The notes: generated by a model not told the origin, from the sequence alone. Shown: positions 25,973 to 58,738, counted from the stretch's first letter. The stretch: 64,000 nt of DNA from Patescibacteria group bacterium UBA5738 (GCA_002419295.1 DIFW01000017.1:57099-121098), one strand, 5' to 3'. Numbers and translations are program-made.

Positions 25973-25982
25973 CGTGTCCCGA

Positions 25983-26351: not shown

Positions 26352-26367
26352 AGGTAATAAAAACAAA

Positions 26368-26736
26368 CTATTCCCCGATGTATTTTTGAATTTTATCAGC
26401 CACCTCTTTGGGATCAAACTCCGTCTTAACCAGCCAATCGGCCGCTCCCAGTTCTTTTGCTCTTTCCAGCTCAAGCGGCTGGCCGGAATTGGAAATGATG
26501 ATCACCGGTATTTTCGCGAGCTTTTCATCTTTTTTCATCTCCGCCATCACCTCAAACCCGCCCATGCGCGGCATCACGATATCAAGCAAAACCAAATCGG
26601 GCATATTCTCCCTCATTTTCTCAATTCCTTCCTGGCCGTTCATCGCCAACGCCACATCATAACCGGCGGCATCAAGCTTTTTGCTCAAAAGCTTGATGAT
26701 CAATTCCTCGTCTTCGATTAGTAAAATTTTTTTCAT
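26368..26736 (-). CDS. Single-domain response regulator (CheY-like receiver only)
   Basis: MKKILLIEDEELIIKLL...DLVLLDIVMPRMGGFEV...VIIISNSGQ...GAADWLVK. Start trimmed to MKKILL. Confidence 0.75.
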   Translation of the reverse strand: MKKILLIEDEELIIKLLSKKLDAAGYDVALAMNGQEGIEKMRENMPDLVLLDIVMPRMGGFEVMAEMKKDEKLAKIPVIIISNSGQPLELERAKELGAADWLVKTEFDPKEVADKIQKYIGE

Positions 26737-26779
26737 AGCCTTTTGTGATATTATAACCCTTGACGCAAAAAGAATCAAA

Positions 26780-28189: not shown

Positions 28190-29411
28190 TTTGTTTTTTT
28201 TCTTTAACCATTGCCGCTTGCAATCGCGCTATCTCTTGTTTTAATTCCATCATTTTCAGTTCGCGGCCAACGGTAATTTTTTGGAAAATTTCCAAATCTT
28301 TGATTTTCGATTCAAGGTCTTTGGTGCGCTCCGCCACCCTGTCTTCCAAAGTTCGATTCAATATCTCCAACTCTTTGGTGCGGGCGCTGACGCGCGCCTC
28401 CAAAGCCGCGTTCGCTTCTTCCAAATTGACTCTGGCATGCTCCAGCGCATGGGTTCTCTGCGCGACTTTTTGTTCCAGCGCTTCTTTTTCGCGATATTCT
28501 TGAACGGTGCTTTGCACCAAAACATAGCCAAAAACGCAAAAAAGGATAAAAAGCACGATTAAAAGCGCTTGTTGCCACAAAACCTCCACAAAAATAGGCA
28601 TCACCAATAAACTCGCGCCCATCAATCCCACAAAAACTTCCACCAAAATAATCTTGATGCCGTACAATTTATCCCTTATCGCCCGATAAATCGCATACCC
28701 CAGAAAAACGGCAATAATATAATCCGCAAAAATCGCAAAAAAACCGATGTATCCCCAAAATTCTCCGCGCGCCGCACCGATAATGTTAAACACCAGATTA
28801 AACAGCCCGAAAATCGCCGCCGGCAATAAAATTGCTTGAGCTTTTTGCCGATTTTGAAGATCGGCAAAACGGCGGTTGCGCGACAATTCTCGAAAAGATA
28901 ATGCCAGCGTCGCGGCGGCGGCAATCGCATATGGCCAAAAAAGAGGTCCGGCGGCAATCCATGAAGCAACTGAAAAATTTTTGTCGAAAAACGATTCGGC
29001 GGCAATCAAAGGAGTGAAGGACGCGGCGAAGAAAAACGACCAAACCGCAATGTTGATATTGTTTTTGCGCCGCTGTTTTTTATCAAGAGGATTGGCCGCG
29101 GGAAAATTCAAAACAAAAGAATAAAACGCGGCGAAAAAAATCGCCAGCAGGGCATATATCCCCCGGAATACCCACAACGATGCGGCGGAAGCGATTTCCA
29201 AAGGAAAAATCACTCCGGATTGCGCGCTCAAGAAATCAAAATCAATCCAAAGTAAGACATAAAAAACCCCCGCCAGAAACAACCGTCCGGAACGAGTGCG
29301 CCAATTGGCCGCGTATGCCCATAGAATTAATTGCAATCCCGCGACATTGACCAGAAAAAACAGCAACTTGCCGATCAGCGCGAAAATATTAATTATATTG
29401 ATAAAATCCAT
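28170..29411 (-). CDS. Polytopic membrane sensor module with C-terminal RTxEL coiled-coil, probably the N-terminal half of a split histidine kinase
   Basis: 413 aa with many TM helices, then ...AQRTHALEHA...SARTKELEIL...AERTKDLES.... The stop overlaps the kinase start by 20 nt, in another frame, at an A7 tract. Confidence 0.5.
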   Translation of the reverse strand: MDFINIINIFALIGKLLFFLVNVAGLQLILWAYAANWRTRSGRLFLAGVFYVLLWIDFDFLSAQSGVIFPLEIASAASLWVFRGIYALLAIFFAAFYSFVLNFPAANPLDKKQRRKNNINIAVWSFFFAASFTPLIAAESFFDKNFSVASWIAAGPLFWPYAIAAAATLALSFRELSRNRRFADLQNRQKAQAILLPAAIFGLFNLVFNIIGAARGEFWGYIGFFAIFADYIIAVFLGYAIYRAIRDKLYGIKIILVEVFVGLMGASLLVMPIFVEVLWQQALLIVLFILFCVFGYVLVQSTVQEYREKEALEQKVAQRTHALEHARVNLEEANAALEARVSARTKELEILNRTLEDRVAERTKDLESKIKDLEIFQKITVGRELKMMELKQEIARLQAAMVKEKKQNEPAVN

Positions 29412-39500: not shown

Positions 39501-40859
39501 TTAAGAATTGTAAATTTTATTTTTTAATAATTTTATTTCCTCGCAAAAATCATCATCATTTTTCATTTTTAAAGATATTTTTTTATAGGCGTGCATTACC
39601 GTGGTGTGATCTTTATTTCCTATTTTTCTGCCAATAAATGGAAAAGAAGCGTTAATTTCATTTCTTAAAAGATACATCACCACTTGGCGAGGCGTAACAA
39701 TTTCTTTTTTGCGCGAGTTCGATAATATTTCTTTTTCTTTTAAATCGTAAAAATTGGCGGTTTCTTGGATTATTTTTTTAAAATTAATTATTTTCTTCGG
39801 GTTTATGGACGACAAAACCTCTCGGCACATTTCAGGAGTGGTGGTTGTGTTTTTAAGTTTTGAGTGCGCGGCGATTTTAATTAACGCGCCCTCAAGTTCC
39901 CGCACATTGTTTTGGATTGTTTCGGCGATTGCCGATAATATTTGGTCTGAAAAAGAAAGTTTCAGATATTGGCATTTTTCTTTTAAAATTGCCATTCTGG
40001 TTTCAAAGTCGGGCAAGCTGATGTCGGCGATCATTCCTCCTTCAAAACGGGACCGCAAGCGATCGGAAAGCTCGGTGATGGCTTTTGGTGGACGATCGGA
40101 GGATAAAACTATTTGCAGGTTTTTGTTGTGGAGGGTGTTGAATATGTAAAAAAATTCATCTTGAGTTTTTTCTTTTCCGGAAATAAATTGAATATCGTCA
40201 ATGATAAAAACCGCGGTATTGAGATATTTGGCGCGCAAATCTTCAATTGTGCCGCCGCGGATGGCATTAATAATTTCCGTGGTAAGTTTTTCCGTTGGAA
40301 CATATTTAACTTTTTTATCCGGGAATTTGTTGGCGACCTCGTTGCCGATTGCTTGCAGTAGGTGCGTTTTTCCCAAACCGACGCCGCCGTAAAGAAAAAG
40401 AGGGTTGTAGGTTTGTCCCGGTTTTTCCGCCGCCGCGCGCGCGGCGGCGTGTGCCAGCTCGTTATGCGGACCCACAACAAAACAATCAAATTGGTATTTC
40501 GGGTTGAGGTTTGTGTTTTTATTGAATGAAAATTCTTCAAAACCCAGCTGTCCCCCGATTTGAGGATTGCGGCGGGATAGATTTTTGTTTTTTATTGACG
40601 GGTCGGGTGCGATTTGCACCACCTTGAAAAACACTTCTCTGATTGATGTATCAAACTCTCTTAAAAACGCAATCATTTGTTTGCGGTATTTTTGTTCCAG
40701 CCACTCTTTTGCCAGACAATTGGGCACGGCGACAACCGCCTCCCCGTTTTCAATTGAAATGATCATGGTTGATTTAAACCATGTGGCGAAAATCGCCGGA
40801 GAAACGCTTAATTGTATTTGGGCCAGTATCGATCGCCAGATTACTTCATTGTTGATCAT
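39501..40859 (-). CDS. dnaA: Chromosomal replication initiator DnaA
   Basis: 452 aa. AAA+ Walker A GGVGLGKTHLLQAIGNE, box VII, and a C-terminal DNA-binding domain. Confidence 0.9.
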   Translation of the reverse strand: MINNEVIWRSILAQIQLSVSPAIFATWFKSTMIISIENGEAVVAVPNCLAKEWLEQKYRKQMIAFLREFDTSIREVFFKVVQIAPDPSIKNKNLSRRNPQIGGQLGFEEFSFNKNTNLNPKYQFDCFVVGPHNELAHAAARAAAEKPGQTYNPLFLYGGVGLGKTHLLQAIGNEVANKFPDKKVKYVPTEKLTTEIINAIRGGTIEDLRAKYLNTAVFIIDDIQFISGKEKTQDEFFYIFNTLHNKNLQIVLSSDRPPKAITELSDRLRSRFEGGMIADISLPDFETRMAILKEKCQYLKLSFSDQILSAIAETIQNNVRELEGALIKIAAHSKLKNTTTTPEMCREVLSSINPKKIINFKKIIQETANFYDLKEKEILSNSRKKEIVTPRQVVMYLLRNEINASFPFIGRKIGNKDHTTVMHAYKKISLKMKNDDDFCEEIKLLKNKIYNS

Positions 40860-41217
40860 ATTTTTGTGGTGGTTCAGTCGCAGTTCTTAATTATAGCCCG
40901 ACATTTTTCAAAAACAATAAACCGTAAAAATGGCAAAATTTACTCAAAAAAATTCTCCTTCTTTTTTTCAATCGCGATTCTAGACGCAATTTTCAAAATT
41001 AAGCCCAAAAAACAACAATAAGAAACAAATAGCAAAAAAGGGCAAATTTTTTGCTTGTTTAAAACTTGTGGAAAACTATGGGTAAAATGTGGATAAAAGC
41101 TAGAAATAAACGCTATTGACACAATATCATTTTTTACCAAACATTTGCAAGCGGTTGTTTTCGGCGCTTGCTTTTTTGCGTGATTAGTATACAATAATCG
41201 TGTGATAATTTAATGAT

Positions 41218-41352
41218 ATGAGCGTAACCTATCAGCCCAAAAAAAGGAAAAGAAGCAAAACGCATGGATTCCGCGAACGGTCAAAAACCGTTGGCGGACG
41301 CCGTGTTTTGAAAGCAAGACGCGCCAAAGGGCGGAAAAAGCTTTCGGTTTAA
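41218..41352 (+). CDS. rpmH: 50S ribosomal protein L34
   Basis: Hand-translated 44 aa, [44 protein letters not shown]. Too short for the ORF track. Confidence 0.85.
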
Positions 41353-41358
41353 TTTTTT

Positions 41359-41706
41359 ATGTTGCCGCCGGCCAATCGTCTAAAAAAAGAAAAAGAAATA
41401 AAGCGCGCGCGGGCCGGAAAAATGATTGGAGGAAGCGGATTACTGGCGTGCCGGGCGGCGGCAAACGATTTGCCGGTTGCCCGGTTTTGTTTTATTGTGT
41501 CAAAAAAAATTTCTCCGAAAGCGACCGCGCGCAATAAAATTAAACGGCGTTTGCGCGCCGCGATCGCCGCGGCGATGCCGCGGATTGCGTCCGGATTTGA
41601 TTGTGTTTTGATCGCTCGTTTTGGCTTGGCGGCAAAAAATTATCAAGAAATTTGCGACTGCGTCAATTTGGTTCTGGCAAGGGCGGGGTTGATAAAATCA
41701 AGCTAA
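41359..41706 (+). CDS. rnpA: RNase P protein component
   Basis: 115 aa basic protein with RNR-like motif (ARNKIKRRLR). Sits in the conserved rpmH-rnpA-yidC order. Confidence 0.8.
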   Translation: MLPPANRLKKEKEIKRARAGKMIGGSGLLACRAAANDLPVARFCFIVSKKISPKATARNKIKRRLRAAIAAAMPRIASGFDCVLIARFGLAAKNYQEICDCVNLVLARAGLIKSS

Positions 41707-41724
41707 TATAAACTTTTTATCACT

Positions 41725-42429
41725 ATGAATATCTTTGATGTTTTAATCTATCATCCCCTTTTTAATATTCTTATTGTTTTATACCAATGGCTGGGAGATT
41801 TTGGATTGGCGGTAATCGCGCTCACAATACTGATTCGGTTTTTGCTTTATCCCCTGGCCGCGAACGCGGTTCGGATGCAAAAAATTACCGCGCGCATTCA
41901 GCCGCGGATGAAAGAAATTCAAGAAAAATATAAAAACGACAAAGAAAAACAAGCGTTGCTGATGATGCAATTATGGAAAGAGCACAAAATCAATCCGATG
42001 AGCAGTTTTTTTCTGTTGTTGGTGCAATTGCCGATACTCTGGGGGCTTTATTATGTTTTTTGGAACGGGATGAAAAACGGTTCGTTATCAATGTTATACG
42101 ATTTTGTTCCCAACCCGGGGGCGATTGATCCGATGTTTTTGGGCGCAGTGTCTTTATCGGAAGCGTTTCCTCCTTTTGCGATCGCGGCGGGGATTTTGCA
42201 GTTTATTCAGACCAAAATGATGGCGCCGGCGATGCCGGATAAAAATGGCGGAGAAAAAAGCCAAAGCGAGCGCTTCGCGGCAATGATGCAAACTCAAGCC
42301 CTTTATGTTTTTCCGGCCGTTACAATATTGATTTTTTGGGGATTGCCGTCTGCGCTGGGGCTTTATTGGATTGCTTCCGGCGTATTTTCTATCATTCAGC
42401 AATATTATATTTTGAAAAAAAACAGCTGA
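41725..42429 (+). CDS. yidC: Membrane protein insertase YidC (short form)
   Basis: 234 aa polytopic protein. LLYPLAANAVRMQKITARIQPRMKEIQEKYKNDKEKQ...LWKEHKINPM is the Oxa1/YidC core. Confidence 0.85.
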   Translation: MNIFDVLIYHPLFNILIVLYQWLGDFGLAVIALTILIRFLLYPLAANAVRMQKITARIQPRMKEIQEKYKNDKEKQALLMMQLWKEHKINPMSSFFLLLVQLPILWGLYYVFWNGMKNGSLSMLYDFVPNPGAIDPMFLGAVSLSEAFPPFAIAAGILQFIQTKMMAPAMPDKNGGEKSQSERFAAMMQTQALYVFPAVTILIFWGLPSALGLYWIASGVFSIIQQYYILKKNS

Positions 42430-42474
42430 TTTTGCCATAGAGGCACTAAAACAACGGGTTTAACCAAAAAAAGC

Positions 42475-42939
42475 ATGAATGAACAAAAAACCATCACCGA
42501 AAAAATCAAAAAAATCGTGCAGAGTTTGATAGAAAAAATCGATAACGCCGCCAGAATTTCCGTTTCCGACGCGAAAGACGGCGTTGTTGAGATAAATATC
42601 AATTCCGACGATGCGGAAACAATGATCGGCGCCGGCGGCGAAACCCTGCGGGCGGTCCGGCATCTCGCGCGGGTGATGGCGCGAAAAACTTTCGGGGAGC
42701 CGGTTTTTATCGAGATTGACATTAACGGGTATCTCGAAAAGAAAAAAAATTACCTGCGCCAGTTGGCGGTTTCCACCGCCGATGAAGCGGCGCTGGAAAA
42801 CAAGGAAATTTCTCTGCCGCCGATGAATTCTTATGAGCGCCGCATTGTGCATATGGCGCTGGCCGGCCGGCGCGACATTTTCACCGAAAGCCGCGGGTGC
42901 GATTCTGACCGGCGCGTGGCGATTAAGCCCGCGCGCTAG
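42475..42939 (+). CDS. Jag/KhpB-like RNA-binding protein (KH and R3H domains)
   Basis: KDGVVEININSDDAETMIGAGGETL (KH domain) and C-terminal YERRIVHMALAG (R3H domain). Downstream of yidC, as usual. Confidence 0.75.
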   Translation: MNEQKTITEKIKKIVQSLIEKIDNAARISVSDAKDGVVEININSDDAETMIGAGGETLRAVRHLARVMARKTFGEPVFIEIDINGYLEKKKNYLRQLAVSTADEAALENKEISLPPMNSYERRIVHMALAGRRDIFTESRGCDSDRRVAIKPAR

Positions 42940-43001
42940 ATTTGGCAAAAAAAACGGCGGCCCGATCAAAGGCGGCCGTTTTTTGTTTGGCGGGATGTGG
43001 A

Positions 43002-44990
43002 CTATGCGGCGGCGGTTTTCCCAACATTGATTCCGGAATCGGTTTTGAGGGGTTCGTTCGCCGCCGGAGTTTCTTTTAAAGCGTTTATCGACGCTCCGCC
43101 GCCATTATTTTTCGGCGCCGCCATCGCGCCGGATTCCGAATCGGGCTTGCGGTTGATGATCTCGGGCGGCGGCCCCGGTTTTTGCGCGACCGCGGCTTTT
43201 TTGATTTCCGCTTTTGCTTTTTTGATTTTTTCCAACTCTTCGGGATTGGTGGTGATAATTTGATCTTCAATATATGAAGCCACCACTTTCATTGCCACAT
43301 GCTTTTGCCCGGCAAAAAACAACCCTTCTCCGATTTCGGCTTCCAAAAGCAACCCCTTTTCCCTTTCGGTGAGATTAAATGTTTTTTGGACCACATCAAT
43401 GGTCGCCGGCGATTGTTTCAGCAGGATTTGTATTGAAGAGTTGGTGATGATCGGCGGTCCGTAGTTGGAACGCATAAAATCAGCCACATCTTGGGTGATG
43501 GTGGAAACTCCCAGCCAGTATTTGCGGGCCCGCTTGCACAATCCGTATAAAAACGAGGCGCCATCGTCGTTTTGCATCAATACCCACGCCTCGTCAACCA
43601 CCAAAATCCGTTTGCGCAATTTGGCGCGGACCTTGTTCCAAATATAATGCATAATGATATACATCGCCGCCGTTCGGAACTCGTTTTCCATATCGCGGAT
43701 GCCAAAAACCACCAGCGGCTTGTCCGTGGAAATGTTGGTGGGTTGGTTGAAAAATTCCGCGTATGTTCCCTGCGTAAATTTGCGAACGCGGCGCACCAAA
43801 GAGTCGGCGCCTTCCATTCCTTCCAGCACCGCTTCCAAATCCTGCATCAGCGGCACTCTCTCCGCCCACAGCCGGGGATCGGTTTCCGGGGTGATGTCTT
43901 TGGCGGCATAAACTTCGGTAAGCGCTTGATCGATGATAGCGTCTTCTTCGGAGGTTAATCCTCCCAAAAGGATTCTTACCAATCCCACGACATTAATAAT
44001 GTTGGAGCGGATTACATCGGCCGGGTTTTCGTCTTCTCTCGGCTCGGGCAAATCAAAAGCATTGATATGGTAGGGTGACGACAGCGAAACATTCAAAAAC
44101 GATCCGCCAGTCGCCTCGGCCAAAGTTTTAAATTCGTTTTCCGGGTCCACGACAATGGCATCCACCCCCATCATCATTGAGCGCAAGATTTCCAATTTGA
44201 CGGTGTAGCTTTTTCCCGATCCTGATTTCGCGAAAATGACGCTATTGGCGTTTTCCATTGAAAAGCGATCAAAAAGTATCAAGGAATTATTATGGAGATT
44301 GGTGCCATAAAGAATCCCTTCATTGGCGGAGAGATCAAACGAGACAAACGGAAAAGTGGACGACAGCGGGCTGGTATTCATCGGCGTCCATGTTTGTATT
44401 TGGTCCATGCCGTAGGGACAGGTGGAAACAAAGCCTTCTTTTTGCTGATAGAGCGACGGCTTGATGTAAATCAGTTTGGATTCAAGGATTGAGCGCAAGG
44501 TGGTTTCAATATCGCGCAATTTTTCAAAATCGTTTTCATATGCCGTCAAATAAATTCCCAGACGAAACATTCTTTCGGTGGAAGTTTGCAATTTGTCGCG
44601 CAAATCTTCCAAATCTTGATGGGCGATTTCCAGCGCTGGATCGCGCACCAGTCCTTTTTCCTGGCGATCCATGATTTCGGCTTGAACTTCGGTGAGTTTT
44701 TTGCGCAATTGTTTTAGCGTGGTGCCGGTATCAATGGGATGGATATGGAAACTTACATCCATGGGAGTGTCCAGATTGATTACCGGAGTGAACCAGCCGG
44801 AATTCAAATAGCGCGGATAGGAAAAAATAAAAAACGATTTACCGCACCGCTCCCCGATCTTGAAATGATCCGACGCCAAAACAATTGACGCCGGCGCGAC
44901 AATATCTTTGATGTTGATCGTTTTCATTTGCAATTCTTGGCCAGGCAACGCGATTTTTTTCGCTTTTTTGGGGGGAGAAAATAACGACAT
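43002..44990 (-). CDS. VirB4/TraC-family type IV secretion ATPase (body)
   Basis: 662 aa. Walker A AKSGSGKSYT, VVDPENEF...INAFDL, Walker B LVVDEAWVLM, and a TraC-like N-domain (YPRYLNSGWFTPVINL). Low-complexity K/A/P-rich tail. Confidence 0.7.
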   Translation of the reverse strand: MSLFSPPKKAKKIALPGQELQMKTINIKDIVAPASIVLASDHFKIGERCGKSFFIFSYPRYLNSGWFTPVINLDTPMDVSFHIHPIDTGTTLKQLRKKLTEVQAEIMDRQEKGLVRDPALEIAHQDLEDLRDKLQTSTERMFRLGIYLTAYENDFEKLRDIETTLRSILESKLIYIKPSLYQQKEGFVSTCPYGMDQIQTWTPMNTSPLSSTFPFVSFDLSANEGILYGTNLHNNSLILFDRFSMENANSVIFAKSGSGKSYTVKLEILRSMMMGVDAIVVDPENEFKTLAEATGGSFLNVSLSSPYHINAFDLPEPREDENPADVIRSNIINVVGLVRILLGGLTSEEDAIIDQALTEVYAAKDITPETDPRLWAERVPLMQDLEAVLEGMEGADSLVRRVRKFTQGTYAEFFNQPTNISTDKPLVVFGIRDMENEFRTAAMYIIMHYIWNKVRAKLRKRILVVDEAWVLMQNDDGASFLYGLCKRARKYWLGVSTITQDVADFMRSNYGPPIITNSSIQILLKQSPATIDVVQKTFNLTEREKGLLLEAEIGEGLFFAGQKHVAMKVVASYIEDQIITTNPEELEKIKKAKAEIKKAAVAQKPGPPPEIINRKPDSESGAMAAPKNNGGGASINALKETPAANEPLKTDSGINVGKTAAA

Positions 44991-45008
44991 GTTCCAATTT
45001 TTGGTTTT

Positions 45009-45656
45009 TTATTGAATTAATTCGGGCGGGATCTCCGGATAATAACCGCGTTCAGAGTCTTCAAGATGGTGCGAGCTCCATAAAAACTCGGCGATTTCAA
45101 GGCTGTTGAGCGGCACGCATTGCAAGCCGCAACGGCGCAATCCCAATGCCACGAACTCCATTCTTTGCGCCAGCTGGGTCTTGCTTTGGTCAAATTGTTC
45201 CTGTGCCGCTTCCGCGATTTTTTCGCGATTGACATTTTTTTCCCGTTTCGCCGCCGCCAAGCTGGGAAGCGCGATCGGCTGGAACGGCACAATCACATAA
45301 AAAGATTTGTTCATAATGGTGCCTCCCGAAACGATTTCATTAATAAAGTTGCGATATTCAACAATCTGCGTGCGCAGAAGATCGTTGCTTTGCTTGGTTT
45401 CCAAATCGCGCAACTTGTCCAAATAGCTGGTGATATTCAACTTGCGGCTTTGCACCAGAATCTGCAGGGAAAAATCAAGAGAATTCAAAAAATTTTGATA
45501 TTGGCCGATGACGGCGTTTTGTTCTTCTTCGGCCATCAGGGCGAAATTGATGGAATTAACCATAATAATCCCCCGCAACCCCTTGTTTTTCAGAACCAGG
45601 ATGCCGTCTTTGATTTGATCAATTTCCAAAAATTGTTGAGTGGATAGAATCGCCAT
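45009..45656 (-). CDS. VirB4 N-terminal domain fragment, separated from the ATPase body by one in-frame TAA
   Basis: 215 aa. IDQIKDGILVLKNKGLRGIIMVNSINFALMAEEEQ resembles Gram-positive-type VirB4 N-termini. The downstream ATG (44990) is 21 nt from the stop, in the same frame. Confidence 0.45.
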   Translation of the reverse strand: MAILSTQQFLEIDQIKDGILVLKNKGLRGIIMVNSINFALMAEEEQNAVIGQYQNFLNSLDFSLQILVQSRKLNITSYLDKLRDLETKQSNDLLRTQIVEYRNFINEIVSGGTIMNKSFYVIVPFQPIALPSLAAAKREKNVNREKIAEAAQEQFDQSKTQLAQRMEFVALGLRRCGLQCVPLNSLEIAEFLWSSHHLEDSERGYYPEIPPELIQ

Positions 45657-45668
45657 ATTTTAAATTTT

Positions 45669-46109
45669 TTACGCGGTTTCTATATAATCGCGGATGAGCC
45701 GCCAGTTGTTTTTTTTGGAAGACGCGGTAATTTTAATCATTGTCGGCGCTTTTTGGAGGGTGATTGTGCCTCGGTCAACGGCCTGCTGGTTGGGCAGAGA
45801 AAATCCTTGCCATAAAAACATTCTTGGCGATCTGGCAAAAGCGATATAGTGCTCAATCACCTTGATGATGTCGATGCCGTCAATTTTCACGAACGCCAGC
45901 GCGCCGGAGCATCCTCCAACGATGGCGATCATCGCCAGCGCCAGCGGCATGCTGGCCTTGCCGACCACAAAATAAATCACAAACGATATGGTGGTGCCGA
46001 TGCCGACAAAAATAAACTGCTTGAATGTGAGCGGCCCCACAATCTTGGACTCCATTTCAATAAATTGCGGAATGGTGAAATTCATGTTGGAATCATAATT
46101 CGCTTTCAT
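45669..46109 (-). CDS. Small two-TM membrane protein, VirB3-like (PrgI/TcpE-type) by position and topology
   Basis: Start trimmed to MKANYDSNMNFTIPQFIEME. Two adjacent hydrophobic helices. Lies directly upstream of the VirB4 genes. Confidence 0.35.
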   Translation of the reverse strand: MKANYDSNMNFTIPQFIEMESKIVGPLTFKQFIFVGIGTTISFVIYFVVGKASMPLALAMIAIVGGCSGALAFVKIDGIDIIKVIEHYIAFARSPRMFLWQGFSLPNQQAVDRGTITLQKAPTMIKITASSKKNNWRLIRDYIETA

Positions 46110-46291
46110 TATATCATCCTTCCATTTTCCCCGCAAAATTTCGCGCGTTAAAAACCGCCGCGTTTTGGCCCGAATATGGTTTTGTGAAAGCCATTTCGCG
46201 AGTGAAATATATTTGATTTCTTTTGCAATCCCCAACGAGGGGTTACGCTGTAATTTCTTGACAGATAGATTGGGTTTGATAATGTGAAAAT

Positions 46292-46633
46292 ATGAAAAGC
46301 AAAAACACATTGGAGAATGGATCGGTGCGGCATATAATTTTTAAACAGGACGGCGTTTGGTACGGCGTGGCTTTGGAATTTAATATCGTGGAAGAAGGCG
46401 ATAATCCGGTGGAAGTGATGGTGTCTTTATTTGAGGCGATACAGGGTTATGTTCAAACCGCGCAAAAATGCAAAATGAGCGCGGCGCCGTTAAACCAAAC
46501 CCCTGATAAAGAATATCAAAAACTTTGGGAGAAACTGTCCAAATCCCAAGTTGCGGGGAATAAAAACGAAAAATCATTACAGGTCTATAATTTCGGCTAT
46601 ACGCCCTTCGCTTCCTATGCCTTGTGCCATTAG
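46292..46633 (+). CDS. HicB-like (UPF0150) antitoxin-family protein
   Basis: DGVWYGVALEFNIVEEGDNPVEVMVSLFEAIQGY resembles the HicB N-domain. A TTGACA-17-TAATGT promoter lies directly upstream at 46257. Confidence 0.4.
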   Translation: MKSKNTLENGSVRHIIFKQDGVWYGVALEFNIVEEGDNPVEVMVSLFEAIQGYVQTAQKCKMSAAPLNQTPDKEYQKLWEKLSKSQVAGNKNEKSLQVYNFGYTPFASYALCH

Positions 46634-47249: not shown

Positions 47250-47621
47250 TTGGGAAGTGTTAGGCTTGGATTGTTAACGGATATTATTTTCATATCTTCT
47301 TTTCTTCCATTTGTTGTGGCATATTATCTTTCCGCAACATATCTATGGCCGATCATGGACGACCCTGTGATCAATATGGTAGAATTTTACATGGTTTGGG
47401 CGGTTGCCTTTGCTGTGTTTTGGACCATCATCAGGGTTTGGAGAAGGAAGAGGGTGGAATTAAGTGCGGTGCAAGCCGCGGAAAATAGGAAGTGGGGTGT
47501 TCCCGAGAAAGAAAAACCCAAAAAGAAGGAAAAAACCAGCACAGATTTGCTGGCAGAAGAGGTACTTAAGAAAGTTGAGGAGAGCATGGATGAAAAAGGA
47601 GAAAAAGGAGGTGAAAAATAA
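47250..47621 (+). CDS. Small two-TM membrane protein with Lys/Glu-rich tail, hypothetical (TTG start)
   Basis: Strong SD AAAGGAGG 8 nt before the TTG start. Two hydrophobic helices, then a KEKPKKKEK tail. Confidence 0.4.
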   Translation: MGSVRLGLLTDIIFISSFLPFVVAYYLSATYLWPIMDDPVINMVEFYMVWAVAFAVFWTIIRVWRRKRVELSAVQAAENRKWGVPEKEKPKKKEKTSTDLLAEEVLKKVEESMDEKGEKGGEK

Positions 47622-48895
47622 TGGCAATACCGTTGCCTGACATCCCGGGGGATATTATTTATTTGTTTTTGGGGCTTTTGGGTGTTTGTATTTTGTGTTT
47701 TTTGGTTTGGTTGGTTTGGTTCCGTATTCCAAACGATCTCCAAGGGCGGTGGTTGATCCGAATTAGCGAGGGTCAAGGTGGATGGCTACACCAAGGAGAT
47801 AACAAAATTGACCCAAAAAGAAATGATCAGGGAAATGCCGCAGGGGTAGTAACGAATGGTCCTGCGATTAAGCCAATCATTTGTTTCAAGGGGTACCATT
47901 GCGAAAAAAATGATGCTGGAGAATATATAGTTGTTCCAGATGTGGATAAAAAACAAGACAAGAAGGATTCTCCCGCGGGTTATGCACTGTTGTGGCCTAT
48001 TCTCTTTGTTTGGCACTATCTTTCTGCTTTAACAAAAAAGCTTTTCTACGGCATTTTTTGGCTTGGCCCTCTTTATGTGTATGGGGCGGGAACCAATAAA
48101 TGGGAAGAATGGGTAGAAGAGCGTGGCAAAAAGGTGCTACGGACATTTGATCGTCGTGAGTTCGGTTTTAGGCTCAAAGTTACGAACTTTGGGTTTGAGA
48201 CAGAGGCCGCTGAAGCAAAAAACAAAGTTCCTTATAAGATTAAGGGAGAAGCTTTCTGGCGTATTGAGAATATAGACAGAGCAACCAGAATGATAGATGA
48301 CAGCAACTATAAGGCGGCAGCGTTGCTGACAGGAGAAATAGTAGCATGGGTTAGCAAGGAACCAATCTATCATATTGAAAGAGATAGAAAAGGAAAGATT
48401 GTCGCCGTTGGAGCTGAGCCGTCGGAGACTTTGAAGGAGAAGCTAGTGGTGCATTTATCAAGAGAAGGAGGTGCTGTTGAAAGGATCCGAAAAGAATATG
48501 GATTCTTAATTAGCGAAATTGTTATTTTGGATATTGAGCCCATGGGTGAGTTTTCCGAGCTTTTAGCCGCTGAAGCAAAGGCTGAGCTCAAGGGGCAAGC
48601 CGATGTTAGAGCGGAAGAGTTTGAAATGGCAGTCCAAAATATTAGGAGAGAATATACTGAAGCATGGTCAGATCTTTATAGAAGAAAACCAGAAACATTT
48701 GTCCAGTTTGCGGCCAGAGGTATTGAAAAACACGGCCCTCCGAGCATTTTTGGAATTGAGGGAATGGTGAGAGGTTCGACTGCGGATGGAGACATAGGAA
48801 GGCTTTTACAACTGATTGCTCCCAAACTGTCTGCGGAAGAAATAGATAAAGTAATTCCACAAATAATGGAATTGCTCAAAAAGAAATCGAAATAA
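47621..48895 (+). CDS. Membrane-anchored protein, possibly SPFH/band-7-like
   Basis: 424 aa. N-terminal TM helix. ILDIEPMGEFSELLAAEAKAELKGQADVRAEEFE resembles the SPFH C-terminal coiled region. A/T-rich codon usage. Confidence 0.35.
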   Translation: MAIPLPDIPGDIIYLFLGLLGVCILCFLVWLVWFRIPNDLQGRWLIRISEGQGGWLHQGDNKIDPKRNDQGNAAGVVTNGPAIKPIICFKGYHCEKNDAGEYIVVPDVDKKQDKKDSPAGYALLWPILFVWHYLSALTKKLFYGIFWLGPLYVYGAGTNKWEEWVEERGKKVLRTFDRREFGFRLKVTNFGFETEAAEAKNKVPYKIKGEAFWRIENIDRATRMIDDSNYKAAALLTGEIVAWVSKEPIYHIERDRKGKIVAVGAEPSETLKEKLVVHLSREGGAVERIRKEYGFLISEIVILDIEPMGEFSELLAAEAKAELKGQADVRAEEFEMAVQNIRREYTEAWSDLYRRKPETFVQFAARGIEKHGPPSIFGIEGMVRGSTADGDIGRLLQLIAPKLSAEEIDKVIPQIMELLKKKSK

Positions 48896-49065: not shown

Positions 49066-50352
49066 TTATGCTCTCATATCTTTTATTGGGATTTTGCTTT
49101 CTTGATGTTTTTGATATTCTTCGCTTTGTCCGTATTTGGTATCCATTGATGCTCGCGTATCTTTGATGCCACCCTGTATCTTTCCTTCCATTCCGGATTG
49201 GAAACTTTTTCTTCCTCCGGAGGAAATTCCCTTGCCTATTCCTCCCGCCATTCCCTGCATGCCCTTGGTGATACCGCTACTGATTTCTCCGCTAAGCTTG
49301 GGAATCATTGCGGCGCAAAGCATTTGCACCGTCATCATATATATTGCCAGCGCGATCCAGTAGATTATTCCCGAAGTGATAAAAGAAATCGTATAGGTGC
49401 CAAACGAAAAAATTGGGGGTTCGTATTGCATTTCTTGCGGCATAATCATATAGGACGCGCTTAATCCGAGCGTAAGCAAAAACAACATCAATACTCCTCC
49501 CAATGTCCAGCTAGTAAGCCAATCAACCCATGTTTTGAAGTGATGTTGCGTTTGCGGCAAGACGCCGGCCAATATTGCCAGCGGTGCGAGAATTGCCAAA
49601 ATTTGGATAACAAAAACACGCGTTAAAAAAAACATTGCAAAAGAAAACAACAATCCGGTCAATGTGTTCATTACCATTATTTTAACGATCAAGGTTGGCA
49701 CAGTGTATATCATTAGCAAGAGTGTTCCCATTACCAATCCCAACCCGGCTAAAATATTCCATCCCAATACAACCGAAGCTACTGCGCCGCCGCTATAAAG
49801 CGCGAATAGAGACAGAGCATTTATAAAAATATCTTTGAAAAATATATCAAATACCGCGGAAAAGATGTCTCCCCCGCCGATGATAATGCTTCCCATTATT
49901 ATATTGCTTATATCAAGCAACATTCCCACAAACAACGGCGCGAAATGGATTAACAATGCGGCAACAAAAAATTTAATAAAATGTTTTTTTGCATTAATTG
50001 ACTCAACATTAAAAATCGTCCCTAGGGCAATGGTGATAAATACAACAATTAGCAAGATATCGGCTATTGTTGTGGTTATGCTTATGCCTGTTTGGACGAA
50101 TGCGCTGTCTTTGAGATTAAGCATTTCCGGGCTTTTGCTGATGGAAAAATTGAATAAAGCGCTGGCGGTTAAAAGATAGATCAATCCACTGGCAATTTGT
50201 TTAAACAAATCAAATATGTATTGTGTTACCGGCTTAACGAAATTCGAAAGCATTACCTCCATGCTTGCCGATTGGGCTACTGCCTGATCAGGGAAGTATG
50301 TTAATCCGACTATCAATAATATTACCAACAAAAATGAGAATTTTGCTTTCAT
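49066..50352 (-). CDS. Polytopic membrane protein with signal peptide and Gly-rich C-terminal tail, VirB6/TrbL-like by architecture
   Basis: 428 aa. N-terminal signal peptide (...DQAVAQSAS), about 8 TM helices, hydrophilic GxxG-rich C-terminus. Sits in the T4SS-like operon. Confidence 0.35.
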   Translation of the reverse strand: MKAKFSFLLVILLIVGLTYFPDQAVAQSASMEVMLSNFVKPVTQYIFDLFKQIASGLIYLLTASALFNFSISKSPEMLNLKDSAFVQTGISITTTIADILLIVVFITIALGTIFNVESINAKKHFIKFFVAALLIHFAPLFVGMLLDISNIIMGSIIIGGGDIFSAVFDIFFKDIFINALSLFALYSGGAVASVVLGWNILAGLGLVMGTLLLMIYTVPTLIVKIMVMNTLTGLLFSFAMFFLTRVFVIQILAILAPLAILAGVLPQTQHHFKTWVDWLTSWTLGGVLMLFLLTLGLSASYMIMPQEMQYEPPIFSFGTYTISFITSGIIYWIALAIYMMTVQMLCAAMIPKLSGEISSGITKGMQGMAGGIGKGISSGGRKSFQSGMEGKIQGGIKDTRASMDTKYGQSEEYQKHQESKIPIKDMRA

Positions 50353-50379
50353 AATTTTATCATTGTAAAAACTTGGCGA

Positions 50380-51630
50380 TTAACGGAACATTCCGCCTAT
50401 AATTCCGATGAAAGTACCGATAACATTTTGAGTTTGATTGGCGATATTTACCAAAGTGCCTTGCTTCGTTTTGTCTTTAATTCTAACTGCGGTGATATTT
50501 TCAAAATTCGTTGCGCTATAGGCATATTCTTTAAACTCTCCAGTGTTCTCGTCGGCGGTTTCTTTGATGCATTTGCCTGAATCTCTGTTTAGACAGCGGT
50601 TTATTAAGCAACCGCAAGCAAGGAAGCCGCAAGGCTCCAGTTTAGCGGTGTCAACTGTGCCGTCGGCATTTTTTTTGTAGGAAAATGCTTGGTATGATTT
50701 TGGTTGGCTCACCGGGCCTTGGGGGAAATTGATCCATCCGCCGTTGATTGCATTGTTCCCTGCCCCCTCCACTTTGTATTCATTGCCGGCAAAATTAACT
50801 TCATCATAGAAGATCACGACATCACATCCCGTTTCAGGAGCATTATAGGTGGCAATGCAGGTATAGGGATTTGGCAGGCATATTTTTTGCCAATCAGTTT
50901 TGCTGCCGTTTTCATCAAAGCCATAATTGCAACCGCAATATAAGCTTTGGCAATCGGCATTTTTACTGCAAAACTGGTAATTATCACTGGCGCCTGGTGT
51001 TATTTTGGCTTCATTCCCCGTTTCGGCGCATACGCTATCGTTGCCGCGGCAACAGCGCCAATTTTTTGGCACGCATTGTTGGTCAAAAGTACCATCGGAA
51101 TCTTTACAGCAATTTATATTATCGTTTGGCCCGGAACAACTTCGGTTGTTAATCGGGAAATTTCCCGCAAGATTTGCCGGGATTGTCGGCAAAGCGACTG
51201 CCATTTCGGTGAGATTGGGATTGATCAAGCTAAAGATTGCCCAACTGGATAATAATAATGCCAGTCCGATCGCCGCGGATTGTATTCTTTTCCTTGCTTC
51301 AGATAATTTATTTGGATCGGCAACGGAAGTGATATATTGTATGCCGGCGATAATCAGCGCGATGAATACCGCCAATCCCCCCAACCCCACTCCCCAGCCG
51401 AAAAAGTAGCCGACAAGATCCGCCAGCGCTGAATCTTCACTCAATGTATATCCTCCCAGTGGAGATGCCGGCCAATCGGTTTGCAAGGTAAAGCCAAAAT
51501 CCGGCGCTTCACATTTCGTTTCAGCTAATTCGCTGGAAAAAATTATTGTCGCGGGGAACGACAAGAGGCAAGCGATTGCAAATAGTAAAAATGCGCGTAA
51601 AATATTTTTTTTAAAAAATTTGGAATGCAT
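50380..51630 (-). CDS. VirB2/TrbC pilin-like hairpin fused to a C-terminal Cys-rich extracellular domain
   Basis: Signal peptide, LADLVGYFFGWGVGLGGLAVFIALIIAGIQYITSVADPNKLSEARKRIQSAAIGLALLLSSWAIF (pilin-like two-helix hairpin), then about 280 aa with about 22 Cys. Confidence 0.45.
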   Translation of the reverse strand: MHSKFFKKNILRAFLLFAIACLLSFPATIIFSSELAETKCEAPDFGFTLQTDWPASPLGGYTLSEDSALADLVGYFFGWGVGLGGLAVFIALIIAGIQYITSVADPNKLSEARKRIQSAAIGLALLLSSWAIFSLINPNLTEMAVALPTIPANLAGNFPINNRSCSGPNDNINCCKDSDGTFDQQCVPKNWRCCRGNDSVCAETGNEAKITPGASDNYQFCSKNADCQSLYCGCNYGFDENGSKTDWQKICLPNPYTCIATYNAPETGCDVVIFYDEVNFAGNEYKVEGAGNNAINGGWINFPQGPVSQPKSYQAFSYKKNADGTVDTAKLEPCGFLACGCLINRCLNRDSGKCIKETADENTGEFKEYAYSATNFENITAVRIKDKTKQGTLVNIANQTQNVIGTFIGIIGGMFR

Positions 51631-51631
51631 T

Positions 51632-52366
51632 TTATTTTTTGGGAAGGATTGATACTGATTCTATCATTTCGTTGATTTCTTGCACAATTGTTGCGGTGGA
51701 GCTTTGCGAGGTTATCGATATGGTGTAAATTTTGCCGGAGGGGGTGTCGAAAATGGCGTTGACTATTTTTAAATTTATCGTAATTTTTGAAGTTGGCTCA
51801 ACGATGGATTGTTCCGTTTCCACCACGGAAACGGTTTGGTCCCCTTTGACGATTTCGGAGCGGGCGATTTTGGCGGCGATATTTTTGGCGCGCAAATCGG
51901 TTTCAATTTTTTCCATCAGTTCTTCAGCGGTTTGCGCGCTTGATTCTTCCACGGTGAGGGAGTTGATCGACGGCATTATCGATTGGCTGGCGGTTTTATA
52001 GGCGGCGAATAATATCTTGCCGCCGGCGCTTTCCGCGGCTTGTTCGCCGAGATTCATCGGTATCCAATCAATCGGGTACTCAAAGGAGAAGGACTCGTCC
52101 GGGGCGGTCCATATTTTTGTTTCAACGGTCGTGGTGGCGCTGTCCGCCGGACTTTGCGCCGGATTTTGCAATTGGCCTTGTATCTGGCTCATAATGCCGT
52201 CAAGCTGTTGGCCGGCGTCGGGCACTCCTTGCATCAATTCTTGCGGCAAATTAAGTTGCAGATTTTTGATATTGCCCTGAAATTGGTTGAACTGCCACAT
52301 CGTGGAGCCGGCCAGAAACGCAATCATTACAAACACGCCGATTAAATATAGATTCACCAATTTCAT
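51632..52366 (-). CDS. N-terminally anchored hypothetical protein (possible VirB8-like periplasmic component)
   Basis: 244 aa. One N-terminal TM helix, a Q-rich linker and a soluble domain. No diagnostic motif. The VirB8 assignment is only positional. Confidence 0.3.
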   Translation of the reverse strand: MKLVNLYLIGVFVMIAFLAGSTMWQFNQFQGNIKNLQLNLPQELMQGVPDAGQQLDGIMSQIQGQLQNPAQSPADSATTTVETKIWTAPDESFSFEYPIDWIPMNLGEQAAESAGGKILFAAYKTASQSIMPSINSLTVEESSAQTAEELMEKIETDLRAKNIAAKIARSEIVKGDQTVSVVETEQSIVEPTSKITINLKIVNAIFDTPSGKIYTISITSQSSTATIVQEINEMIESVSILPKK

Positions 52367-52375
52367 AATATCGAA

Positions 52376-54955
52376 TTATATGTTCCACCACACTCCCGCG
52401 TATCCGAACAATGAGGTGAATATTCCCACGATTGTCCAGGCGAAAAACAATATGAAATAGCCGATGCCGATCAGTTTCCACCATGAAATGACTTTTTGCT
52501 TGATTTCGGGAGTGCCAAAGCTGGTATAGAACAAGCCGCCGGTGGCCAGCCCCAGCAAAGGCAGAAGAATAAACGCCGCGCGGAACAGAATCATATTCAA
52601 AATTTGCATTATTACCAGCAGAAAATGCTTGGCGCCGCAAGCTTCGCGGTCGTCCCATTCGGTGTTGGGATTGTCATTGGTGAGGCCGCAGACCGCCAAA
52701 ACCATTTGCCCTTTTTCTATTTCTTTGCCGCCGGCGGCAAAATCAAACGACCATGTTGCCGGCGCCGCGCCCGTATCCGTGCATTTTTCGTCCAGACAAG
52801 CTAAAACCGACCACTCATATTTTCCCAGACAATAGAGCTGGCGGATGTCCTTGTTGATCGTCGTTGAGTTTTCGTTGACGATTTTTTCCACTTTTTGTCC
52901 GGGAGCGCAATCTTTGTTGGTTTCTTTGTCGGATTTTTCGGCATAATTCAGATTTAGTTTGTAATAATGCGCGCCGGCGACCGGTTCCCATGAAAAGCTG
53001 TAGATCAGCTGGCTGTTATTGATTGTTTCTTGCGGGTTAATCGGTCCTTCTGACGCGCCCAAGGCCGCGGTGGAAAAAGTGAATTTGGGCGAAGGCGCGC
53101 CACAAAGCTGGCCGTTTTCGTCGGCGCAAGTTTGCACGCTCCATTCATAAGATTGGCTTTGGTTGACGGCTGGATAGTCCGCGGCGTAATTATTGTTTTG
53201 CGAGACAATTTTCTGGCCGTTGAAATCCAAAACATAAGATTTGGCGCCGGCAACCGCTTCCCAATGCAAATCAACCGGCATTGCCAAATCGGAAGTGTTG
53301 TCCGCGGGGGATAAAGTTTCGGTTTTCGGCGCGCGGCCGGTGGTGCGGAAATACCACCATTGAGACCACGGCTCGTCGCACACATTGCCCACCGGAATCG
53401 ACGGCCAGCAAGATTTCACGCGCCATTTGTAGGCAGTGTCCAATTCCAGTTCAATCCCCTGCGCGTCGCTGTTGTTGTCGGCGGCGTTTGCTTTGGAAAA
53501 AATAATTTGTGATTTTGTGGTGCGCCGCTCTCCGTCTACCAATGATTGGCCGGTGTCGCCGGAAATTTTTTGAATATCATAAGCAAAAGAATTGGCGCCG
53601 TTGGGAGCTTGCCATAAAAGCTTTCCCGGCAGTTCGGCGAGTTTGGCGGTTTGCGCATTGGCATAATCGCCGTCATTGGCGGGCGAAAGCGCCTTCGGTG
53701 CTTCAACAATTTCATTTTTTGCGGTAAATTTCCAAAGCTGGCCCCAATATTTGTCTGATGATGAGCCGCAATATTCATCGCCGGCATTGGTGTTGTTGAA
53801 ACACCGCCGCAACTGCCAATAGTAGGTAATGTTTTTGGTGAACAGCGCCCGATCTTGACTGGACATTTCTTTATGCGACCACCAATTGCGCCCGACTGTC
53901 TCTTGCGCCGGGTTAATGACATCGGGCTTGCAGGTGTTATCGGTTTGCTTTTGAAGATAATGGCAAGCCATGGGATTTTGCAATGCCGGCACATCTTTTT
54001 TTAACCATGCGGCCAATTGAGAAAATCCTTGCGGGATTTGCGCGCCGGTCAATACCAGATGATTTTCGTTGGTATAAACACGCAACTGGTATGATAGCGC
54101 CGCGATCATATTATTGTTGTAGGCCATTTTTTCCGATGAAACTTTGGCCGAACACCAATCAAGCTTCAACCCATCATAGGAGATGCCGGTTTTTCCGTCC
54201 GGACCGTTCCAATCCGGGTCGCCGATGTTGATGGGTTCGGGAGCCGGGCTGGTTTTAAATGTCCACCATGGCGCTTTGTCTTCGGGCAGGCAATTGGAAC
54301 CGTCTTCGTTGCAACAAGGGCGTATGCGCCACTTGATTACCGTGTCGGAGTTATAGAAACAGGGGTAAAATTTTTCCGTCGCGTTAAATTCGTTGGTAGT
54401 CAAAATCTGGCGGAAAATACCGCCGGCGCTTTGAGAGTCGTTTAATTCCAAATTCTTGTTTTCTATTTCTAAAATATACGAATGGGCGCCGAATAATTTG
54501 GAAGTCGTCGCTTTTTTATTTCCCAATTTTTCTTGAAAATTCCAAATATATTCTCCGTCTTCGTTTTGCCACCCGTCGATATTGTCCCATGCCAAAACCA
54601 CGGGCAAGGTGATTTCATTTTCGTTGGTTTGCCTGGTTTTATTCACCGGATCGTTATAATAGTAATGGTTTTTGGGCATGGTCAAGCATTCGTTGACGCA
54701 AGCGCAAGCGCCCATATCAATATTGTCGTTAATTTTCAGTTGCCCTCCCTTTTGCCACGATTTGCAAACGGTTTCGCCGGATTTCGTGCCGCTAAAAGAC
54801 GCGCCGCATTCTTCCGGGATGTCAAAATAATCGGTTTCACCGATATCGGTTGCGGAACACAATAACGGCGCGATTGTTGCGGCCAAAAAAAATAAAATAT
54901 GCGGGAAAAATGATTTTAAAATTTTAGAAATCATGCCGATTTTTTGATTTATCAT
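52376..54955 (-). CDS. Giant secreted Cys/Trp-rich repeat protein with C-terminal VirB2-pilin-like membrane hairpin (paralog A)
   Basis: 859 aa. Signal peptide. Repeated modules (YKWRVKSCWPSIPVGNVCDEPWSQWWYFRTTGRAPK, YEWSVQTCADENGQLCG, WTFKTSPAPEP). C-terminus FRAAFILLPLLGLATGG...IGIGYFILFFAWTIVGIF. Confidence 0.5.
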   Translation of the reverse strand: MINQKIGMISKILKSFFPHILFFLAATIAPLLCSATDIGETDYFDIPEECGASFSGTKSGETVCKSWQKGGQLKINDNIDMGACACVNECLTMPKNHYYYNDPVNKTRQTNENEITLPVVLAWDNIDGWQNEDGEYIWNFQEKLGNKKATTSKLFGAHSYILEIENKNLELNDSQSAGGIFRQILTTNEFNATEKFYPCFYNSDTVIKWRIRPCCNEDGSNCLPEDKAPWWTFKTSPAPEPINIGDPDWNGPDGKTGISYDGLKLDWCSAKVSSEKMAYNNNMIAALSYQLRVYTNENHLVLTGAQIPQGFSQLAAWLKKDVPALQNPMACHYLQKQTDNTCKPDVINPAQETVGRNWWSHKEMSSQDRALFTKNITYYWQLRRCFNNTNAGDEYCGSSSDKYWGQLWKFTAKNEIVEAPKALSPANDGDYANAQTAKLAELPGKLLWQAPNGANSFAYDIQKISGDTGQSLVDGERRTTKSQIIFSKANAADNNSDAQGIELELDTAYKWRVKSCWPSIPVGNVCDEPWSQWWYFRTTGRAPKTETLSPADNTSDLAMPVDLHWEAVAGAKSYVLDFNGQKIVSQNNNYAADYPAVNQSQSYEWSVQTCADENGQLCGAPSPKFTFSTAALGASEGPINPQETINNSQLIYSFSWEPVAGAHYYKLNLNYAEKSDKETNKDCAPGQKVEKIVNENSTTINKDIRQLYCLGKYEWSVLACLDEKCTDTGAAPATWSFDFAAGGKEIEKGQMVLAVCGLTNDNPNTEWDDREACGAKHFLLVIMQILNMILFRAAFILLPLLGLATGGLFYTSFGTPEIKQKVISWWKLIGIGYFILFFAWTIVGIFTSLFGYAGVWWNI

Positions 54956-54978
54956 TTATCATTTATCATTATACACCT

Positions 54979-57930: not shown

Positions 57931-57937
57931 TAGACCA

Positions 57938-58738
57938 TTATAATTCAAAAACGCGGGCAAGGGCAATCCAGTCCTGCGGCGATAAATTTTCCGGCCGGCA
58001 ATTTTGGGGGATGCCGGAGTTCGCCATTGCCGCCTTTATTTTTTCGCGGGGCAGATTCGCGATTTGGACGAGATTGCTTGCCAAAAGTTTTCGCGGATGC
58101 GAAAATCCGGCTTTTAAAATTCTAAAAAATTTTTCCGAGAATTTTTTATCGGCGCGCTCCCCTTCTTTTGCGCGGGGAACAAGAAGCAAGATCGCGGCAT
58201 CAACTTTCGGCACGGGCCAAAAAGATCCCTTGGAAACATAGCTGATAATTTTGGGAATGGCGTAAAATTGCACGGCGGTTGCCAAAATGTTCGCTTTTGG
58301 CGCTTGCGCGCAAATTCTTTGCGCCACTTCTTTTTGGATGATCAAAGACATTAACGCCGGCGGATTTCGGCTTTCCAAGAATTTGCGGATGATCGGCGCG
58401 GCGGCATAGAACGGCAGGTTGGCGACGATCTTGTAGGGCGCGGCGATTTTTAATTCGTCGAATTTGAGCGCGTCGGCGAGAAACAATGTGAAATTGTCCG
58501 CTTTGTTGAATTTTTCGCGCAAAACATCCGCCATTCGGCGGTCTTTTTCCGCGGCGATCACGGGACGGCCGGTTTTTATCAATTCCGCGGTGAGATTGCC
58601 GGTGCCCGGTCCGATTTCCAAAACAGTTTCGCCCGATTTAATTTCCGCCGCGCCGATTAATTTTTTTATGATTCCCGTTTCGGACAAAAAATTCTGCCCC
58701 AGCCGTTTTTCCGGCCTGATTTTCAATTTATCGTTCAT
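57938..58738 (-). CDS. rsmA: 16S rRNA (adenine1518/1519-N6)-dimethyltransferase
   Basis: RLGQNFLSETGIIKKLI...VLEIGPGTGNLTAEL is the canonical KsgA SAM-binding region. Confidence 0.85.
   Translation of the reverse strand: MNDKLKIRPEKRLGQNFLSETGIIKKLIGAAEIKSGETVLEIGPGTGNLTAELIKTGRPVIAAEKDRRMADVLREKFNKADNFTLFLADALKFDELKIAAPYKIVANLPFYAAAPIIRKFLESRNPPALMSLIIQKEVAQRICAQAPKANILATAVQFYAIPKIISYVSKGSFWPVPKVDAAILLLVPRAKEGERADKKFSEKFFRILKAGFSHPRKLLASNLVQIANLPREKIKAAMANSGIPQNCRPENLSPQDWIALARVFEL

Follow-up and report, generated by a model that had tools for sequence, protein, structure and literature searches.

The two adjacent minus-strand genes at positions 43,002 to 45,656 of the window, i.e., the whole 64,000-nt stretch of Patescibacteria group bacterium UBA5738 DNA that was analysed, very probably encode a naturally two-gene VirB4 ATPase of a Patescibacteria (CPR) type IV secretion system (T4SS) whose two genes share a reading frame incidentally. 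The upstream gene (ORF A) would provide the first ~200 residues of the VirB4 N-domain as a free-standing TrsD-like or 'TraC-like' protein, and the downstream gene (ORF B), the counterpart of TrsE from plasmid pGO1, would provide the remaining N-domain along with the ATPase motor. The original prediction had described a VirB4-like gene interrupted by a single in-frame TAA and had left four readings side by side: a naturally split VirB4, a very recent nonsense mutation, a sequencing error and a stop-codon readthrough site. The natural split was borne out by the collinear homology of the two proteins and by the orthologous loci; since the two genes share their frame only incidentally, the weight that the original prediction gave to one in-frame TAA was not warranted.

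A compact three-gene unit

The gene boundaries given in the original prediction were confirmed in the sequence. ORF A (45009..45656, minus strand) encodes 215 aa and ends ...YPEIPPELIQ, followed by TAA at 45011..45009; its conserved C-terminal tail is GYYPEIPPELIQ. ORF B (43002..44990, minus strand) begins with the ATG at 44990, encodes 662 aa starting with MSLFSPP and runs to 43002. Both lie in the same frame, with 21 nt from the first base of the stop codon to the first base of the ATG. The intergenic spacer of 18 nt (44991..45008, minus strand), AAAACCAAAAATTGGAAC, reads as the six codons KTKNWN.

A gene for a PrgI-family (VirB3-like) small membrane protein of 213 aa (45669..46310, minus strand; Pfam PF12666 PrgI, E 2.1e-11, above the gathering score) precedes ORF A, and its stop codon lies 12 nt ahead of the ORF A ATG. 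This gene is the first in a compact unit of three co-oriented genes, in the order PrgI, 12 nt, ORF A, 18 nt, ORF B and a hairpin. The terminator-like hairpin (42950..42983, minus strand), recognized in the sequence by its flanking A and U runs, sits directly past the ORF B stop codon between convergent genes, and its RNA fold was calculated at -19 kcal/mol (z -2.4). The consensus terminator scan did not list it; therefore, we infer a terminator at this position rather than regard it as demonstrated. The hairpin is likely the end of the PrgI–ORF A–ORF B transcript.

Proteins with T4SS-pilin-like domains are encoded upstream of the PrgI gene on the same strand. A 416-aa protein (50380..51630, minus strand) showed a T4SS pilin-like domain (Pfam PF18895 T4SS_pilin, E 2.4e-7) and matched the NCBIfam model of the Mbov_0395 pilin-like conjugal transfer protein at E 7e-9, below its cut-off; it probably belongs to this secretion locus as an additional component. 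The adjacency to a VirB3-like gene and to other T4SS components that is expected of a VirB4 gene was found here in the form of the PrgI gene and the T4SS_pilin proteins.

Across the 28 long ORFs in the window, TAA is the commonest stop codon (19 of 28), and a Shine-Dalgarno-like motif was present ahead of a single one. Therefore, the missing Shine-Dalgarno motif before ORF B is normal in this DNA and does not argue against independent initiation.

Division of the VirB4 protein between ORF A and ORF B

ORF B matched Pfam P-loop_TraG (PF19044, E 7.8e-24), AAA_10 and DUF87, and among solved structures it matched the VirB4 C-terminal domain in PDB 4ag5 (E 5e-45) and TrwK of R388. The C-terminal RecA-like ATPase domain characteristic of the VirB4 family was found in ORF B with both of its motifs, Walker A (GSGKS, around residue 257) and Walker B (VVDEAW); a low-complexity tail of ~75 aa was also observed. 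Against NF045971 (VirB4-like, CD1110 family), ORF B scored 360.6 bits and passed the cut-off of 325 but covered only positions 172-733 of 752, and alone it fell under the TIGR00929 and NF045975 cut-offs. In a BLASTP alignment with PrgJ of pCF10, a single-chain VirB4, the first residue of ORF B paired with PrgJ residue 197. As the model coverage begins at 172 and the PrgJ alignment at 197, ORF B is without ~200 N-terminal residues. Judging by these matches, ORF B is the remainder of the VirB4 N-domain together with the RecA-like motor.

ORF A matched the corresponding N-terminal regions of three NCBIfam VirB4 models: positions 2-123 of the CD1110 model (E 7e-7), positions 108-233 of the Mbov_0397 model (E 2e-8) and positions 18-153 of TIGR00929. 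On the same CD1110 model, the segments covered by ORF A (2-123) and ORF B (172-733) are collinear and do not overlap. An artificial concatenate of the two proteins aligned with TIGR00929 (VirB4_CagE) in one stretch, with residues 15-811 corresponding to profile positions 18-777 of 792. The N-terminal domain of the VirB4 family is therefore present and divided between ORF A and ORF B; the single polypeptide of ~800 aa seen elsewhere in the family is replaced here by two genes. These matches, the concatenate and the alignments with a fused relative described below agree with the original prediction that ORF A is the start of the VirB4 N-domain and ORF B the rest.

ORF A also matched the NCBIfam TrsD/TraD model (NF041427) at E 4.6e-7, with 29.9 bits where the curated cut-off is 200 bits, indicating that it is a remote homologue rather than a TrsD/TraD member by NCBIfam. 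The Pfam domain PF26593 (TraC-like) was found in the precomputed annotation of all 120 best ORF A homologues, including one that is 98% identical, as well as at the N-terminus of fused VirB4 proteins. A scan of ORF A itself against the local Pfam copy gave no match; the PF26593 assignment of ORF A thus rests on the precomputed annotation of its homologues. The description that suits ORF A best is that of a distant TrsD homologue with the TraC-like domain.

We considered that ORF A might be an unrelated family that is merely encoded upstream of a short VirB4, an outcome that the original prediction had itself named as a challenge to its reading. ORF A sequence searches found nothing in the local Pfam copy or among PDB chains, the latter even at E<=10, and hhalign, run with the ORF A profile on PrgJ as a lone sequence, produced a spurious match only (E 0.2), the sensitivity of this profile being limited by its low diversity (Neff 1.7). 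Against such a family stand the significant matches of ORF A within the N-terminal regions of three VirB4 models, and so does the fold: in a Foldseek search of the PDB with the AlphaFold2 model of ORF A (pLDDT 69), the top 12 matches were all TrwK/VirB4 chains of the R388 secretion system, the best at E 4e-4 and probability 1.0, although its TM-score was modest (0.40) and its rmsd high. Moreover, ORF B is without exactly the first ~196 residues of PrgJ, and the N-terminal part of a fused VirB4 shares 41% identity with ORF A. We consider it scarcely conceivable that ORF A is unrelated to VirB4.

The fused protein (P0219, from the representative search), which testifies most directly to the nature of the two ORFs, is a 797-aa VirB4 of a related patescibacterium of the Colwellbacteria type. 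Residues 6-197 of ORF A aligned with its residues 8-208 (41% identity, E 6e-43), and residues 4-586 of ORF B aligned with its residues 207-788 (53% identity). The neighbourhood of the fused gene matches that in the window, with PrgI upstream and R3H, YidC, RnpA and DnaA downstream; a PrgI gene has the equivalent position at the fused-VirB4 locus L084 and at L083, which carries a damaged copy. Fused VirB4 proteins of ~790 aa with an N-terminal TraC-like domain formed at least 118 protein clusters (90% identity), labelled mostly Colwellbacteria or Parcubacteria. More generally, the full architecture of single-chain VirB4 proteins (PrgJ of pCF10, from the CD1110 family; TrwK of R388; the fused P0219) is covered collinearly by ORF A and ORF B, and the single-chain systems also have an adjacent VirB3/PrgI gene. 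The difference is that their N-terminal ~200 residues lie within the chain, whereas in the window they form a separate polypeptide.

A neighbour-joining tree built on the ATPase part placed the split proteins and the fused proteins in reciprocally monophyletic, deep sister clades, with pGO1 TrsE outside both. These separate clades suggest that the split and fused states are each stably inherited. Sampling for the tree was biased to two query neighbourhoods and the tree carries no support values; therefore, the ancestral state, split or fused, cannot be read from it.

The stop codon in orthologous loci

The protein collection contained 4,054 homologues of ORF A. Of these, the best 120 were drawn from ENA, JGI, NCBI and Logan assemblies, were 59-98% identical to ORF A and were all 184-232 aa in length; a protein 98% identical to ORF A (P0001) has exactly 215 aa. 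When ORF A was aligned with 25 of these 120, all 26 sequences ended at one position (...PEIPPE-x-x-x), with a mean column identity of 70%.

The original prediction had proposed a comparison of orthologous loci for a fused or split VirB4, and this comparison showed the split in 79 of 80 loci and the fused form in a sister lineage. A genome scan confirmed 545 related loci, and the best 80, all from different species, were analysed. All 80 were Patescibacteria metagenome-assembled genomes, e.g., of Nealsonbacteria, Paceibacterota, Staskawiczbacteria and Wildermuthbacteria. A separate ORF B gene lay downstream of ORF A on the same strand in 79 of them, and the end position of ORF A was common, within 0-5 residues, to these 79 loci and all 25 aligned homologues. 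The A/B split is thus ancient and stable. What lies between the two genes was variable. ORF A ended in TAA at 56 of the 79 loci, TGA at 15 and TAG at 8; ORF B was in frame 0 relative to ORF A at 18, +1 at 33 and +2 at 28. The gap ranged from -4 nt (an ATGA overlap) to 1675 nt and was 1-130 nt in most loci, with gaps of about 500-640 nt in five and the longest in one. At an in-frame locus (L057), four codons separate the ORF A stop from the ORF B ATG. The distribution of 18, 33 and 28 loci over the three frames indicates that the shared frame in the window is incidental.

One alternative is that a single VirB4 of ~880 aa was recently broken by one TAA and that the secretion system is decaying. 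The in-frame layout with six intervening codons and the fused VirB4 of ~790 aa in the sister lineage would both fit such a mutation. However, a recently created stop should face a sense codon in orthologues, and no such codon was found at this position in the 25 aligned homologues or the 79 loci: all aligned homologues, down to ~50% identity, terminate at the matching point of the protein. Both pieces are strongly conserved, and the mean column identity of ORF A is 70%. The closest relatives carry a longer spacer in another frame, and the split and fused proteins form separate deep clades. A genuinely damaged copy looks unlike the window; the one at L083 has an internal N-domain deletion of ~100 aa and a frameshift. 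A false stop codon made by sequencing or assembly error has nothing specific in its favour and fares no better, as a ~215-aa protein, including P0001, is encoded independently in ENA, JGI, NCBI and Logan assemblies and the stop occurs at the equivalent place in 79 of 80 loci of other species. Because stand-alone homologues of ~215 aa share the end residue across independent assemblies, we excluded both the nonsense mutation and the sequencing error that the original prediction had entertained, and we give either one almost no chance of being correct.

Programmed readthrough, in which some ribosomes would continue past the TAA and yield a fused VirB4 of 884 aa in addition to the two separate proteins, is slightly less improbable but still very unlikely. 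The in-frame layout with a short spacer would suit it, and 18 of the 79 orthologous loci, L057 among them, are also in frame; yet with a prior of 1 in 3, 26 in-frame loci would be expected, and the 18 observed represent no enrichment. A programmed site should keep its frame, stop identity and downstream context among orthologues. Here, the stop varies between TAA, TGA and TAG, the gap can be as short as an ATGA overlap or as long as 1.7 kb, and the spacer lacks sequence conservation; TAA is, in addition, the standard stop of the window, and no suppressor tRNA was found within the window. Since frame, spacing and stop identity are not conserved between loci, readthrough was excluded as a conserved mechanism, and this part of the original prediction was not upheld. 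Low-level, non-programmed readthrough may occur, and nothing suggests selection for it.

In the two relatives closest to the window (L001 and L002, 91% and 80% identity), the genes are 127-130 nt apart, the spacer is AT-rich and the frame is +1. The window is without ~110 nt of this spacer; among orthologues, the sequence between the genes is not conserved and could not be aligned. Because the closest relatives keep the long spacer and the other frame, the shared frame in the window is a by-product of spacer deletion rather than a conserved feature: the lineage lost the ~110 nt of AT-rich spacer, and the shared frame with its single TAA arose in consequence.

For the two-gene VirB4, we postulate that PrgI, ORF A and ORF B are co-transcribed and that ORF A and ORF B are each translated from their own start codon. 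By homology with single-chain VirB4, the two polypeptides would rejoin non-covalently into a VirB4-like subunit. The membrane-proximal N-terminal part of single-chain VirB4 contacts VirB3 in the R388 structures; by the same homology, ORF A may supply the membrane-proximal part that contacts the PrgI (VirB3-like) protein.

Known split systems and annotation of Patescibacteria genomes

The split of VirB4 in conjugative plasmids of Gram-positive bacteria has long been known but is little discussed. In the TrsD + TrsE system of pGO1/pSK41 (Staphylococcus aureus; MPF_FATA, pGO1 subclass), the genes follow one another as they do in the window: positions 25492-28602 of pGO1 encode a VirB3-like protein of 135 aa, TrsD of 227 aa and TrsE of 672 aa, compared with 213, 215 and 662 aa here. 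ORF A accordingly has the size and place expected of a TrsD/TraD protein: it falls within ~200-230 aa, follows a VirB3-like gene and precedes a VirB4 that is short at its N-terminus (TrsE-like). ORF B and pGO1 TrsE aligned end to end with coinciding N-termini, and ORF B residue 29 corresponded to TrsE residue 36 (BLASTP, E 1e-34), indicating that the split boundary is common to pGO1 and the window. The alignment of ORF A residues 19-198 with pGO1 TrsD residues 47-217 over ~160 columns was weak (hhalign, E 0.0017, probability 15%), and pGO1 TrsD scored 227.6 bits on NF041427 against the 29.9 bits of ORF A. The systems also differ in setting: that in the window is chromosomal, beside dnaA/yidC in an obligate-symbiont lineage, whereas that of pGO1 is on a conjugative plasmid.

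In Patescibacteria, TrsD was reported as the most abundant T4SS component in a survey that used the CONJscan TrsD HMM (MPF_FATA) (Quinonero-Coronel et al. 2025, Microb Genom, PMC12102498). The survey counted 2,272 TrsD homologues in 2,221 Patescibacteria assemblies, of which 1,664 adjoin virB4, and described Patescibacteria TrsD as remotely homologous to the N-terminal portion of VirB4; for the TrsD–VirB4 homology it cites Guglielmini et al. 2014 (PMC4027160), and the word TrsD is absent from the main text of the latter. As presented in the passages of the survey on TrsD and VirB4, the Patescibacteria TrsD–VirB4 pair is the same system as that in the window, and nothing substantive differs. 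Because the survey reports TrsD adjoining virB4 across Patescibacteria, the window pair exemplifies an arrangement that is very common and was already known from publication. Those same passages hold no discussion of the fused VirB4 variants of ~790 aa.

One feature that distinguishes ORF A from pGO1 TrsD is its C-terminal tail, GY[YF]PxIPPE, which is lineage-specific. The motif was present at the ORF A-type C-terminus in 111 of the 120 best split homologues and in none of the 118 fused proteins. Purely as a hypothesis, the tail may be a docking peptide that re-attaches the N-terminal piece to the ATPase. In loci that are in frame and six codons apart, as in the window, a single base change could turn the split form into the fused one or back. 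We tentatively suggest, with more doubt than confidence, that Patescibacteria VirB4 exists in two stable states, with the break at the pGO1 boundary, that the tail of the split state may dock and that a point mutation could interconvert the two.

For the annotation of CPR genomes, these results mean that pseudogene, frameshift and recoding flags are out of place where a stop codon lies in frame between a small 'hypothetical protein' and a short VirB4, and that the small gene ahead of a short VirB4 should be annotated as a TrsD-like N-terminal piece of VirB4. TrsD is essential in Ca. Southlakia epibionticum (Wang et al. 2023, cited in PMC12102498), and for the epibiotic lifestyle of at least one cultivated patescibacterium, the T4SS is reported as essential (PMC12102498).

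Origin-region synteny and genes around the T4SS unit

We compared the surroundings of the T4SS unit in the window with those in two fused-VirB4 relatives, L083 and L084. In all three, the unit adjoined the origin-region genes dnaA / yidC (/ R3H-jag / rnpA), which were located at 39501-42939 in the window and at 2944-5937 in L084. Synteny of the T4SS unit with the origin-region genes is thus conserved between the split-form and fused-form lineages.

Upstream of the PrgI/TrsD/VirB4 unit lay a run of large uncharacterised genes on the minus strand (49066-57966), encoding proteins of 995, 859, 244, 416 and 428 aa. The 416- and 859-aa proteins contained a T4SS_pilin-like segment, and the 995-, 244- and 428-aa proteins showed no family match. 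The proteins of this run probably belong to the secretion system of PrgI/TrsD/VirB4, as parts of its surface or pilus. A 424-aa ORF on the plus strand (47621-48895) was located inside the T4SS gene cluster, on the strand opposite to it. This ORF had no match in Pfam or NCBIfam and was preceded by a strong Shine-Dalgarno sequence (AAGGAGGTG), the sole case among the long ORFs of the window; it may be a foreign insertion.

Variants among the TrsD-like relatives

Of the 150 representative TrsD-like proteins, 41 (roughly one in four; P0136, P0139, P0152, P0158, P0187 and P0188, among others) were 260-450 aa in length. Their surplus was a C-terminal extension past the conserved domain, low in complexity and rich in Pro, Ala, Gln and Thr, which the low-complexity tail of approximately 75 aa of the 662-aa VirB4-like ATPase in the window resembles. 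Six related Patescibacteria loci (L073, L052, L072, L078, L079 and L080) carried 0.5-1.7 kb of additional DNA between the TrsD-like and ATPase genes, possibly an inserted gene.

In the fused-VirB4 clade, one MAG (L083) had a damaged N-terminal TraC-like domain (1282-1850), in which approximately 100 residues were missing internally and a frameshift was present; the called ATPase that was left measured 600 aa. This damage reflects either genuine pseudogenisation or an assembly artefact.

Decoding and translation starts in the window

A cluster of seven tRNA genes was observed at 18.5-22.4 kb of the window, and its first member was a tRNA-Ile with the anticodon TAT (UAU) on the plus strand (18581-18653). 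AUA is normally decoded in bacteria by a lysidine-modified CAU tRNA; the UAU anticodon of tRNA-Ile is unusual.

At the starts of the ORFs of at least 250 aa, a Shine-Dalgarno-like motif was found in 1 of 28. Several long ORFs had a TATAAT-like box approximately 20 nt or less upstream of the ATG (examples of long-ORF starts, on the minus strand: 54955, 57930, 24651, 2028 and 36126). Boxes so close to the ATG suggest that leaderless or very-short-leader mRNAs are widespread.
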